A stretch of 64,000 nt of DNA, from NCBI RefSeq assembly GCF_030384885.1, contig NZ_CP128614.1, one strand, 5' to 3'. The DNA is from Escherichia coli. Lineage in GTDB: Bacteria > Pseudomonadota > Gammaproteobacteria > Enterobacterales > Enterobacteriaceae. The position numbers are program-made. This document shows, one piece after another, positions 21,001 to 24,000 of this stretch. Numbering within the stretch: the stretch's first letter is position 1; each line of letters starts with the position of its first letter.

Positions 21001-24000
21001 ATGGCTCTGCTCGGTACTTCTCGGCCAGTACGGGCTCCCCGTGGCAAGAACGCAGATTGCTCACTTTGAAGATCAGAAAGCGCTGGTGGTAGAACGTTTT
21101 GACCGAAAATGGTCAGGAGACGGACAATGGATCATTCGTTTACCCCAGGAGGATATGTGTCAGGCCCTGGGCGTTTCGCCATTACGAAAATATCAGGCGG
21201 ACGGCGGGCCAGGTATATCGGAAATTATGGAGGTTCTGAGTAATTCAGACCGTGCTGAGCGTGACAAAGCGCAGTTTTTTATGACGCAGATAATTTTCTG
21301 GATGATGGCCGCAACAGATGGCCACGCTAAAAATTTCAGTATTTCTATTGGGCCACAGGGACGTTATCACCTTACACCAAACTATGATGTGTTGTCGGCA
21401 TGGCCGGTGATCGGTCATGGGAACAATCAGATATCCTGGCAGAAGTGCAAACTGGCGATGGCCGTACGTGGCAGTAGCAACTATTACCAGATATATCGAA
21501 TACAACGACGCCACTGGATCAGGCATGGTGAGATAACCGGCCTGAGTAAACAGCAGACAGAGGCGATGATAGAGGAAATCATCGCCAGAACCCCGGGTGT
21601 CATTGAACGTGTTAGCGGGCTTCTTCCGGACCAGTTCCCCCAGCAGCTTGCGGAAAGTATTTTTGATGGAATGAGGCAGCAATGCAGGCGCCTGGCTGAG
21701 AAATGACAGCCGCAATTTATAGTGTGCATGTTTTCAGAATAGCTGATGTAAGCGTGAGGATTCAGTATGACTGAAGAACAAAAAAGAATAGAGCGGGCTA
21801 TTGAGTTGGCTTGTCGTTACGGCGGAACCGATGAAATGCATCATCTGCAATGGGTCGTGGATCAGATGGTAAGAGAACTTGCTGGAGAACGTTATGCACA
21901 GATTGTAGCTGATGCCACCAGCGGAGAAGATGGGCCTGATACTTACAAATGGAGTGTTGGGATCGCGCCTTAACAGCTGTCGGTCTGGGGGTGAAAACGT
22001 ATTCTTCATTCAGCGAATTCCCAGGCTTCACATTAAGACTAAAGCGGCGGCCGCAGTAACGTAAGAGAAAATAAATGGCTATTTTAGCAATCATTGCAGT
22101 TATCGCCCTGGGTGGGTACGCCTACGGATTTATTAAAACCCGTGAGCTGAGCGCTTTGCGTAAAGAAATGAAACTATACGTGGATCGCATGGAAGCGGCG
22201 GAGCTGGACTTACACGCAATCAGAAGTGTAGCGGAGCACCGGTTGCACGGTGCAGGTAAACAGTTTGCCGACCTTTACAGCCGTATCGACGGTGCAACTG
22301 TGACGCTGACACCCGAAGATCAGCTGTTACTGGCAACGATGCCATTTAATATTCAGGATGTAGAAGACATCGTAAACGAGCGCGGTCCAAAGACAATTAG
22401 CGGCCGTCCATTCTGGGAAGTTGAGCCAGGCCCGCATGATTATGAATATGGCCCGCAATATCCGTATTTCCCAGACCAGCGCTAGGAAGAGATCAAGATG
22501 AGAGAGCCAAGACCACGCCATACCTTGCAGGTCATTCGTGTACCTTCTCTGGAGGTTCAGGACCTGGGGCTGACCAGCTTTGATAGCTGGCTTGACGAGC
22601 ACGGGTATGACAAAACGAATGCCAGAAATAACCGTACCATCTGGGCGAGAGAAGGCGGATGGCATCTGAAACGTTGCAGAAATCTTGAAACTGGCACGGA
22701 CGATTTCTGGTTTATCGCTTTCGATGGTAAAGGCGGGAAGATTTACCCGCTGAAAACCCAAAGAGACTACCGGGCTGCATATCGTAAGCTGGAAGCAGAA
22801 GGTTATGCGCCTGCGGTCATCGAGCAAATGACCACAGGCGCAGCATATAACCTGGCCTATCCACGTTCCATCCTAAAACAAGCTGAGACGGCCACCAGCG
22901 AGCCAATTCGGAAACCTGACGTAGATATCCAGGGTGAGCACTGCGAGCGCGTAGTGACGCAACGTAGTGGCGTGGCACAGGGTAAATTCAAAGCTCTGCT
23001 CATCGAGAATTTCGCAGGCCGTTGTGCGGTAACCGGTTGGGTTAATGGAGGTGTCCTGGATGCGGCACACATTGAACATGGAACCCGGTACAATCCGTCT
23101 AATGGCATCCTGATGACTCCAACAATGCATGCGCTGTTTGATGCCGATCTTATGGGCATAGATCCGGCCACCCTGACCGTTCATTTTAAGCCAGGCATTG
23201 AGGTGGGCGAGCTGTTTGAAGGCCGTAAAATCACACCGCTGGTGTACGATCTGGACTTAGAGCGGCTGGCCGTACGCTGGGCAGAATACCAGGGCCTTGC
23301 TCAGGACCAATGAAGGGTGACAGCCAGGTTGTGCCTAAACCTGGCAGTAAAACCTGCATGCCACAAACCTTTAAATTCTGACTCAAGAGCCTGGCACAAG
23401 ATAAAAGCGAAATGAAAAGGTTAAAACCGGTGCACCAGACCTCTTAGGTTTAATACCTGAGCCAGTATACTGGCAGTCTCAGGTAAGTGGGTATCATACA
23501 CTTCAGAAATATCCACACCGAGATAACCGCAACAGTTAAAGGGTGATGCTGCCAACTTACTGATTTAGTGTATGATGGTGTTTTTGAGGTGCTCCAGTGG
23601 CTTCTGTTTCTATCAGCTGTCCCTCCTGTTCAGCTACTGACGGGGTGGTGCGTAACGGCAAAAGCACCGCCGGACATCAGCGCTATCTCTGCTCTCACTG
23701 CCGTAAAACATGGCAACTGCAGTTCACTTACACCGCTTCTCAACCCGGTACGCACCAGAAAATCATTGATATGGCCATGAATGGCGTTGGATGCCGGGCA
23801 ACCGCCCGCATTATGGGCGTTGGCCTCAACACGATTTTCCGCCATTTAAAAAACTCAGGCCGCAGTCGGTAACCTCGCGCATACAGCCGGGCAGTGACGT
23901 CATCGTCTGCGCGGAAATGGACGAACAGTGGGGATACGTCGGGGCTAAATCGCGCCAGCGCTGGCTGTTTTACGCGTATGACAGGCTCCGGAAGACGGTT

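Follow-up and report, generated by a model that had tools for sequence, protein, structure and literature searches.

The stretch of DNA analysed here in full (referred to as the window) comprises 64,000 nucleotides (nt) of Escherichia coli contig NZ_CP128614.1 (assembly GCF_030384885.1). It represents the backbone of an IncHI2/IncHI2A plasmid with a MOBH relaxase and an MPF_F mating-pair formation system, just downstream of the ter clusters, and is identical to many plasmids of ~200-370 kb hosted by E. coli and Salmonella. The current work focuses on three genes, here named p68, p136 and HNH1, which follow the toxin-antitoxin (TA) module hipBA and the last of which encodes a protein with a C-terminal HNH nuclease domain. 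An original prediction, made from the same DNA, regarded these genes as a tightly spaced three-gene unit in which small partner proteins accompany the nuclease, as in defence or exclusion cassettes. The features of the locus are as follows (aa, amino acids; ORF, open reading frame; CDS, coding sequence; IS, insertion sequence):

20080-20376, + strand: hipB (Pfam HTH_3, 4.5e-15; RefSeq agrees)
20381-21706, + strand: hipA (HipA_C, 3.6e-51; Couple_hipA, 3.7e-21; RefSeq agrees)
21767-21973, + strand: p68, WP_000134171.1, 68 aa (ORF call and RefSeq CDS)
22075-22485, + strand: p136, WP_000985911.1, 136 aa (ORF call and RefSeq CDS)
22498-23313, + strand: HNH1, WP_053276223.1, 271 aa, two-domain HNH_2 nuclease (Pfam HNH_2, RefSeq CDS)
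23542-24309, + strand: IS1 (IS1B), 228 nt past the HNH1 stop codon (ends located)

Properties of the three genes

The gene content that had been proposed for this region is borne out by ORF calling, RefSeq annotation, isoelectric point (pI), hydrophobicity and Pfam alike. The p68 product is acidic (pI 4.66, with 13 D+E residues versus 7 K+R), p136 specifies a protein whose only strongly hydrophobic stretch lies at the N-terminus (aa 2-20, mean Kyte-Doolittle value 2.2), consistent with a membrane anchor, and HNH1 matches Pfam HNH_2 (PF13391) at aa 176-222 with an E-value of 3e-7, above the curated cut-off. The predicted spacing is likewise correct, p68 beginning 60 nt past the end of hipA and p136 being separated from HNH1 by 12 nt (22486-22497), and the IS1 element that had been placed immediately downstream is present, starting 228 nt after the last gene. 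Ratios of nonsynonymous to synonymous substitution rates (dN/dS) calculated against diverged homologs are low for p68 (0.05-0.06), p136 (0.11-0.16) and HNH1 (0.08; 0.076 between the IncHI1 and IncHI2 orthologs), and the three are therefore taken as genuine genes on which purifying selection acts. No Pfam, NCBIfam or PADLOC match was obtained for p68, which hits one weak PHROG of no assigned function, and none of usable quality was obtained for p136 from Pfam, NCBIfam, PADLOC or PHROGs, where DUF4272 appeared below threshold only. A scan of the locus for promoters and terminators performed no better than on shuffled sequence.

HNH1 belongs to the IncHI1/IncHI2 backbone, hipBA-p68-p136 to an insert

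Comparison with IncHI1-type loci (L008-L013, L026 and L027) delimits the following segment:

19800-22495, + strand: IncHI2-specific variable segment (hipB, hipA, p68, p136)

In the blastn alignments against L008 and L011, positions 19056-19800 of the window, which cover a conserved 130-aa backbone gene, align at 88-89% identity, and the alignment resumes at 22495/22499-23290 at 75% identity with nothing in between, while an alignment of the upstream regions places the break in homology at the HNH1 start codon. The HNH1 ortholog of IncHI1 plasmids (79% identity) holds the same backbone position, has a GTG start codon, and is preceded by a region of ~120 nt which is common to IncHI1 plasmids and differs from that of IncHI2. 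Where the window has hipBA, p68 and p136, some IncHI1 plasmids have 0.7 kb containing an unrelated 67-aa gene and others 3.3 kb of different cargo; homologs of hipBA, p68 and p136 were searched for in the IncHI1-type loci and none was found, and, conversely, none of the genes that make up the IncHI1 cargo before HNH1 (401, 163, 117, 90, 67 and 135 aa) has a homolog in the window. The IncHI1 67-aa gene and a 136-aa gene of locus L029 were also considered as hidden homologs of p68 and p136, and the comparison was negative.

This gap in the alignment identifies hipB-hipA-p68-p136 as an IncHI2-specific insert of 2.7 kb, and HNH1 as part of the backbone shared by IncHI1 and IncHI2. The 12-nt spacing between p136 and HNH1 is thus the product of an insertion and not an ancestral operon. 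Since the insertion displaced the ancestral region upstream of HNH1, expression of the gene in IncHI2 plasmids is probably due to read-through from p136.

Relatives of p68, p136 and HNH1 occur apart

Relatives of p68 with 60-88% identity are present in Yersinia, Serratia, Leclercia and Citrobacter, where the gene is solitary in three contexts: next to a Rep3 replicon, ahead of mazEF, and, within a phage-like block, ahead of the terminase gene. Those of p136 (44-86% identity) are solitary in five contexts, among them positions after traI or traX on F-like plasmids, an island of Enterobacter asburiae with a KAP NTPase gene alongside, and a phage-like element; neither an HNH gene nor hipBA stands beside a p136 relative in the contexts examined. 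For HNH1, a relative with 42% identity (Enterobacter) is located between a helix-turn-helix gene and an integrase gene, and relatives with 38% identity, which have long N-terminal extensions, belong to an integrative island of the chromosome. Homologs of p68 or p136 are absent beside the HNH1 relatives of 79%, 42% and 38% identity (L004-L013, L026-L030), an HNH gene is absent beside the relatives of p68 or p136 (L014-L023), and no two of the three genes co-occur in any diverged locus examined.

It follows, with considerable confidence, that p68, p136 and HNH1 are juxtaposed independent genes and not a co-inherited three-gene system, p68 and p136 being small independent mobile-element genes. 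The unit that had been proposed, with its small partner proteins, does not withstand the break in homology at the HNH1 start and the occurrence of relatives of each gene without the other two.

Several features of these loci were recorded alongside. The p68 homolog positioned directly upstream of mazEF (L019/L020 5375-5952) echoes the location of p68 after hipBA in the window, and small genes of mobile elements may have a tendency to gather around TA modules. In two unrelated contexts (L015 6491-7162, L016 4241-4402), p136 homologs adjoin genes or gene fragments for an SOS-response-associated peptidase (SRAP). The Enterobacter relative of HNH1 with 42% identity (L004 8661-12306) adjoins the integrase gene and a Lamassu-like block in which the domains CTD7, MC3 and LmuB_C occur, a neighbourhood of the defence-island type. 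A database protein of 426 aa (P0214) contains HNH1 from ~aa 25, preceded by sequence resembling an out-of-frame stretch which lies downstream of the 130-aa backbone gene (window positions 19449-19575), and has two HNH_2 domains in a single frame; this protein apparently stems from another plasmid in which the locus underwent deletion and fusion.

An IS1-adjacent deletion removed the usual downstream neighbours of HNH1

The locus is found in 1,163 PLSDB plasmids, 830 of which keep it contiguous, and also on plasmids of 284 of the 5,426 complete E. coli genomes. Relative to plasmids such as p1585m1_A (L003), the window carries a deletion of 3.5 kb adjacent to IS1 (junction 23541/23542): positions 6543-10044 of L003 are missing, blastn joining position 6542 to 10045, and no target-site duplication was detected at the IS1 flanks. 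Undeleted plasmids contain, following HNH1, a 141-aa lipoprotein-like gene (hyp141), a 102-aa zinc-ribbon-like gene (hyp102) with CxxCxGxG-type motifs, and a second HNH_2 nuclease gene, HNH2 (285 aa), all of which have been lost here. This IS1-deleted arrangement is common to ~42 PLSDB plasmids. The genes which precede HNH1 and HNH2, p136 and hyp102, were considered as possible paralogs; they have no similarity, and the two HNH loci are thus not duplicated two-gene modules.

A small gene whose product has a lipoprotein-type signal peptide with a lipobox cysteine lies directly 3' of the gene with the N-terminal domain and HNH_2 in IncHI2 (L003 6568-6993), in IncHI1 (L011 6934-7341) and in a chromosomal island (L029 9685-10140). 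Homology among the three lipoprotein-type proteins was not detectable, and the recurrence of such a downstream gene, which the window has lost, may point to partners that are analogous or may be coincidental.

HNH1 consists of an undescribed N-terminal domain, a linker and an HNH nuclease domain

The AlphaFold model of HNH1 contains two confident domains (aa 7-120 and aa 156-265) with a disordered linker between them, where the predicted local distance difference test (pLDDT) falls below 50:

22516-22857, + strand: N-terminal domain, aa 7-120, ~115 aa, aromatic-rich alpha/beta, candidate sensor/targeting module
22867-22962, + strand: disordered inter-domain linker, aa 124-155 (pLDDT <50)
22963-23292, + strand: HNH (beta-beta-alpha-metal) nuclease domain, aa 156-265 (Foldseek, family profile)

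The best solved structures retrieved by Foldseek are TagI (6ghs) and VcaM4I (6yex), both with a probability of 1.00. A single-sequence search of PDB with HNH1 or HNH2 gave no match, VcaM4I being reached by the family profile only, which aligns with its HNH domain, the preceding helix included, at an E-value of 7.5e-12. In this alignment the HNH1 catalytic residues H191 (23068-23070), N202, H211 and D215 correspond to VcaM4I H224, N241, D250 and D254, each of which abolishes activity when substituted by alanine (PMC7897488). Within the alignment of HNH1 relatives (A1), H191, H211 and D215 do not vary and the conservation of N202 is at least 90%; with its residues thus aligned and conserved, the HNH1 active site looks intact. 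Among the PADLOC models, the candidate-defence model PDLC04132 'HNH' matches HNH1 at 2.4e-8 and the 'Type II restriction enzyme' model matches weakly (0.0037). A described defence system was sought by means of PADLOC and not obtained, p68 and p136 having no match and HNH1 matching only these two models, the former generic and the latter weak.

The N-terminal part of HNH1 had been described as a 170-aa domain of unknown function. It is indeed a domain of no described family, yet its folded part measures ~115 aa and is followed by the linker and then by a helix (aa 158-171) which is already part of the nuclease domain. The domain search that had been suggested for this region returned no match among Pfam families or solved folds. 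Modelled alone, the N-domain reaches a pLDDT of 82 and a predicted template modelling score of 0.73. When 1.84 billion representative proteins were searched exhaustively with HMMER, a handful of proteins only was recovered; wherever the protein is complete, the N-domain lies directly N-terminal to HNH_2 and nowhere else. Phage genomes lack the domain, which occurs solely on large plasmids of enterobacteria and in a few islands. The domain is mildly basic (pI ~9) and carries an invariant aromatic cluster (W31, Y37, W49, W55, F70, W71 and F75). Multi-stretch HMMER matches between its beta-hairpin part (aa 26-83) and adhesins with Big_9/cadherin-like repeats (P0221-P0225, 1,900-2,900 aa, E 6e-10 to 1e-5) were judged, after Pfam annotation, to be a spurious summation over repeats. 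HNH1 is accordingly best regarded as an HNH_2 nuclease whose N-terminal domain is undescribed, and is listed in databases as a generic 'HNH endonuclease signature motif containing protein'.

In R478-type IncHI2 plasmids of Enterobacter and Klebsiella, HNH1 is split after aa 143 (window position ~22926), inside the linker, by a Tn3-family transposon with IS4321. In plasmid pDR25-1 (L024 5798-10559), an N-domain stub of 174 aa remains, with IS4321 and a Tn3-family transposase gene behind it; tblastn aligns aa 1-143 only, and the match to R478-type plasmids ends at query position 1227. A backbone HNH gene of IncHI5 plasmids, 'hnhc', is also repeatedly split by IS elements (PMC6339943). Splitting of HNH1 and hnhc may reflect counter-selection of the nuclease or chance.

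Other genes in the window

Downstream of IS1, a gene at 24338-25003 (- strand) specifies a 221-aa protein which matches the PADLOC model DpdC (4e-59) and Pfam DUF6884; further dpd genes, for the modification of DNA with 7-deazaguanine, are absent from the vicinity, and a 126-aa gene (25061-25441, - strand) comes next. Genes with DUF6884 are also located near the HNH pair on IncHI1 (L027 10790-11344) and, together with an SNase-domain gene, beside a p136 homolog on a Klebsiella aerogenes IncFII plasmid (L015 7129-8420). At 26072-28104, a gene for a DUF4942 protein overlaps the start of one for a 401-aa coiled-coil protein, forming a two-gene pair, the latter protein having weak PADLOC matches to LmuB/JetC-type SMC-like models (2.4e-7). 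The region 28384-33010 contains a DUF1173 gene, a cytosine-5 DNA methyltransferase (C5-MTase) gene, a thermonuclease-family gene and a gene for a 298-aa protein of no assigned function, and these genes of the backbone may be relevant to anti-restriction or to the processing of DNA. Two of them are as follows:

29954-31381, - strand: orphan-type DNA cytosine-5 methyltransferase (PADLOC oMTase, 3e-206)
31596-32111: thermonuclease-family gene (PADLOC C3a212 SNc+LTD, 3e-11)

Interpretation of the locus

The explanation that best accommodates the whole, and to which we assign an even chance, combines a juxtaposition made by an insert with a stand-alone HNH1 that is built like the modification-dependent (Type IV) restriction enzymes. 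Judged by architecture and homology, the leading assignment of HNH1, which we hold tentatively, is a solitary sensor-coupled nuclease of the restriction type. In the corresponding scheme, the IncHI2 segment hipBA-p68-p136 sits before the older backbone gene HNH1, whose upstream region it has replaced. The N-domain would recognise a feature of DNA and, through the flexible linker, would be coupled to the C-terminal HNH domain, whose predicted complete H-N-H-D active site would cut DNA. As in VcaM4I, autoinhibition may keep the nuclease inactive until the N-domain engages its target, so that a targeting or sensor domain would license a relatively non-specific HNH nuclease. A cognate methyltransferase would be unnecessary because plasmid and host DNA would be devoid of the target, and the outcome would be restriction of incoming phage or plasmid DNA.

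No methyltransferase gene is adjacent to HNH1 in any context examined (IncHI2, IncHI1, and the relatives of 42% and 38% identity). Its neighbours are p136 and IS1 in the window, and p136 and hyp141 in undeleted plasmids; the nearest methyltransferase gene is that of the C5-MTase, 6.6 kb away on the other strand, for which the best PADLOC model is of the orphan type. These findings accord with the proposed scheme, as do the strong purifying selection on HNH1 between IncHI1 and IncHI2, the exclusive coupling of the N-domain to HNH_2, and its basic character and aromatic cluster. The idea of a defence-type nuclease remains plausible for HNH1 itself, given its homology to VcaM4I and TagI and the PADLOC 'HNH' match, but not for a three-gene cassette. 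HNH1 is not a homing or transfer-related nuclease, a match to which had been named, along with the lack of a phage or plasmid phenotype, as speaking against the prediction; the structures closest to HNH1 are those of restriction enzymes.

Two observations limit this explanation. The N-domain fits no recognised class of modified-DNA reader (the PUA superfamily with SRA, EVE and YTH, the sulfur-binding domain (SBD), NEco, or winged helix), and DNA sensing by HNH1 is therefore proposed by analogy. Moreover, HNH1 is dispensable, as evident from R478-type plasmids in which the gene is split. It is possible, if doubtful, that the N-domain, with its four invariant tryptophans, represents a new class of reader of DNA modification or DNA structure, and that HNH1 would found a new single-protein Type IV family on the backbone of the IncHI1/IncHI2 resistance plasmids, which are dominant in the clinic, normally located beside a differently targeted HNH_2 enzyme.

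An unlikely alternative is that HNH1 is a nuclease of plasmid biology, which would serve competition between plasmids, recombination or the processing of DNA that has been transferred, and HNH2 might take part in this. The restriction of the N-domain to large enterobacterial plasmids and a few islands, with none in phages, is in agreement with such a role, as are the conserved position of the HNH1...HNH2 pair in both IncHI1 and IncHI2, the frequency of related solitary HNH_2 genes on other plasmid types, and the IncHI5 backbone gene 'hnhc' (PMC6339943). However, neither tra nor oriT genes are near HNH1 in the 64-kb window, plasmids with a split HNH1 are still typed as conjugative, which renders the gene dispensable, and the closest characterised homologs are restriction enzymes.

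It is quite improbable that p68, p136 and HNH1 work as three components of one defence or exclusion cassette, HNH1 being regulated, anchored or neutralised by the two small proteins. The genes are co-oriented, the gap of 12 nt between p136 and HNH1 contains no terminator-like site, the trio adjoins a TA module and is conserved jointly across >1,100 IncHI2 plasmids. Yet this joint conservation exists because IncHI2 backbones are near-clonal (at least 96% nucleotide identity) and does not reflect independent co-occurrence or co-selection; furthermore, the three genes are separate in every diverged context examined, and the IncHI1 ortholog of HNH1 is accompanied by neither partner.

Very improbable, too, is the notion of HNH1 as a Type II or IIS-like HNH_2 restriction endonuclease protected by the plasmid-borne C5-MTase (29954-31381). 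AlwI, BbrI and HphI do belong to HNH_2 (PMC5714182), the weak PADLOC 'Type II restriction enzyme' match (0.0037) points in the same direction, and both genes are on one plasmid, but several unrelated genes separate HNH1 from the oppositely oriented methyltransferase gene, the distance of 6.6 kb becomes 10 kb in undeleted plasmids, the methyltransferase best matches the orphan model (3e-206), and the HNH1 relatives of 42% and 38% identity have no methyltransferase nearby. Finally, if HNH1 were a selfish HNH endonuclease gene, or one of the homing type, and formed a mobile cassette by itself, this would account for a DNA homology between IncHI1 and IncHI2 that is almost confined to the ORF (22495-23290), at 75% versus 88-89% for the flanking 130-aa gene, but is extremely improbable given that there is no intron, intein or duplicated target, that the backbone position of HNH1 does not differ between IncHI1 and IncHI2 and the gene is under strong purifying selection, and that HNH_2 groups with restriction enzymes rather than with homing endonucleases.

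IncHI1 and IncHI2 plasmids spread mcr-1, extended-spectrum beta-lactamases and the multidrug resistance of typhoid, and backbone genes that shape which phages or rival elements a host receives would influence the persistence of such plasmids. A literature search retrieved no functional study of the IncHI2/IncHI1 HNH gene or of the RefSeq protein accessions, and the retrieved work on phage inhibition by R478 concerns the ter cluster. If the stand-alone nuclease with a new sensor domain is correct, a reader fold would be added to the modification-dependent nucleases, of use in epigenomic mapping, and a plasmid-borne defence gene would lie beyond classification by current defence finders. A more general lesson is that on a mosaic plasmid tight spacing beside a TA module is not evidence of a system, the adjacency here having been made by insertion.

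Comparison with known systems

One comparison concerns the Type II/IIS enzymes AlwI, BbrI and HphI (His-Me finger group 6; PMC5714182), which have PF13391 in common with HNH1 and carry their recognition domain outside the catalytic finger; these enzymes have cognate methyltransferases, whereas none is adjacent to HNH1, and the similarity is limited to the HNH core. The SBD-HNH phosphorothioate-dependent endonucleases (ScoMcrA type; NF045808 PT-DNA_restrict; PMC7461809) follow the same design principle and match HNH1 weakly at aa 159-224 (E 0.022), although the score of 13.9 compares with a family cut-off of 180 and a sulfur-binding domain is not detected in HNH1.

On the IncHI plasmids themselves, HNH2 (WP_000784387.1), which is normally located two to three genes downstream of HNH1 in IncHI1 and IncHI2 and is deleted here by IS1, is similar in length and layout, with 27% identity to HNH1 over the C-terminal 176 aa and a weak match to the same PADLOC HNH model, while its N-terminal half is unrelated to that of HNH1. 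The IncHI5 gene 'hnhc', as judged by its description, resembles HNH1 in being frequently split by mobile elements.

The closest counterparts are found among the modification-dependent enzymes. TagI, of the TagI/ScoA3IV family (SRA-HNH; 6ghs; PMC6212794), is the top Foldseek match to HNH1 in PDB (E 4e-3, 121 columns over the HNH half) and shares the two-domain design of a reader plus HNH in 285 aa; unlike TagI, HNH1 does not possess an SRA domain, and a sequence-level match to TagI was sought and not obtained. HNH1 is not assignable to the TagI/VcaM4I class, its candidate reader domain being of no recognised type and modification dependence being suggested by analogy. A further counterpart is VcaM4I, an EVE-HNH modification-dependent restriction endonuclease (6yex; PMC7897488), whose HNH domain is homologous to that of HNH1 by both profile and Foldseek comparison. 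The two proteins have in common an R-x-GQ-x-FR helix before the core, catalytic residues of the pattern H/N/(D or H)/D, and a general plan in which a non-catalytic N-terminal domain is followed by a linker and the HNH domain (309 versus 271 aa), and both are encoded by solitary genes with no adjacent methylase.

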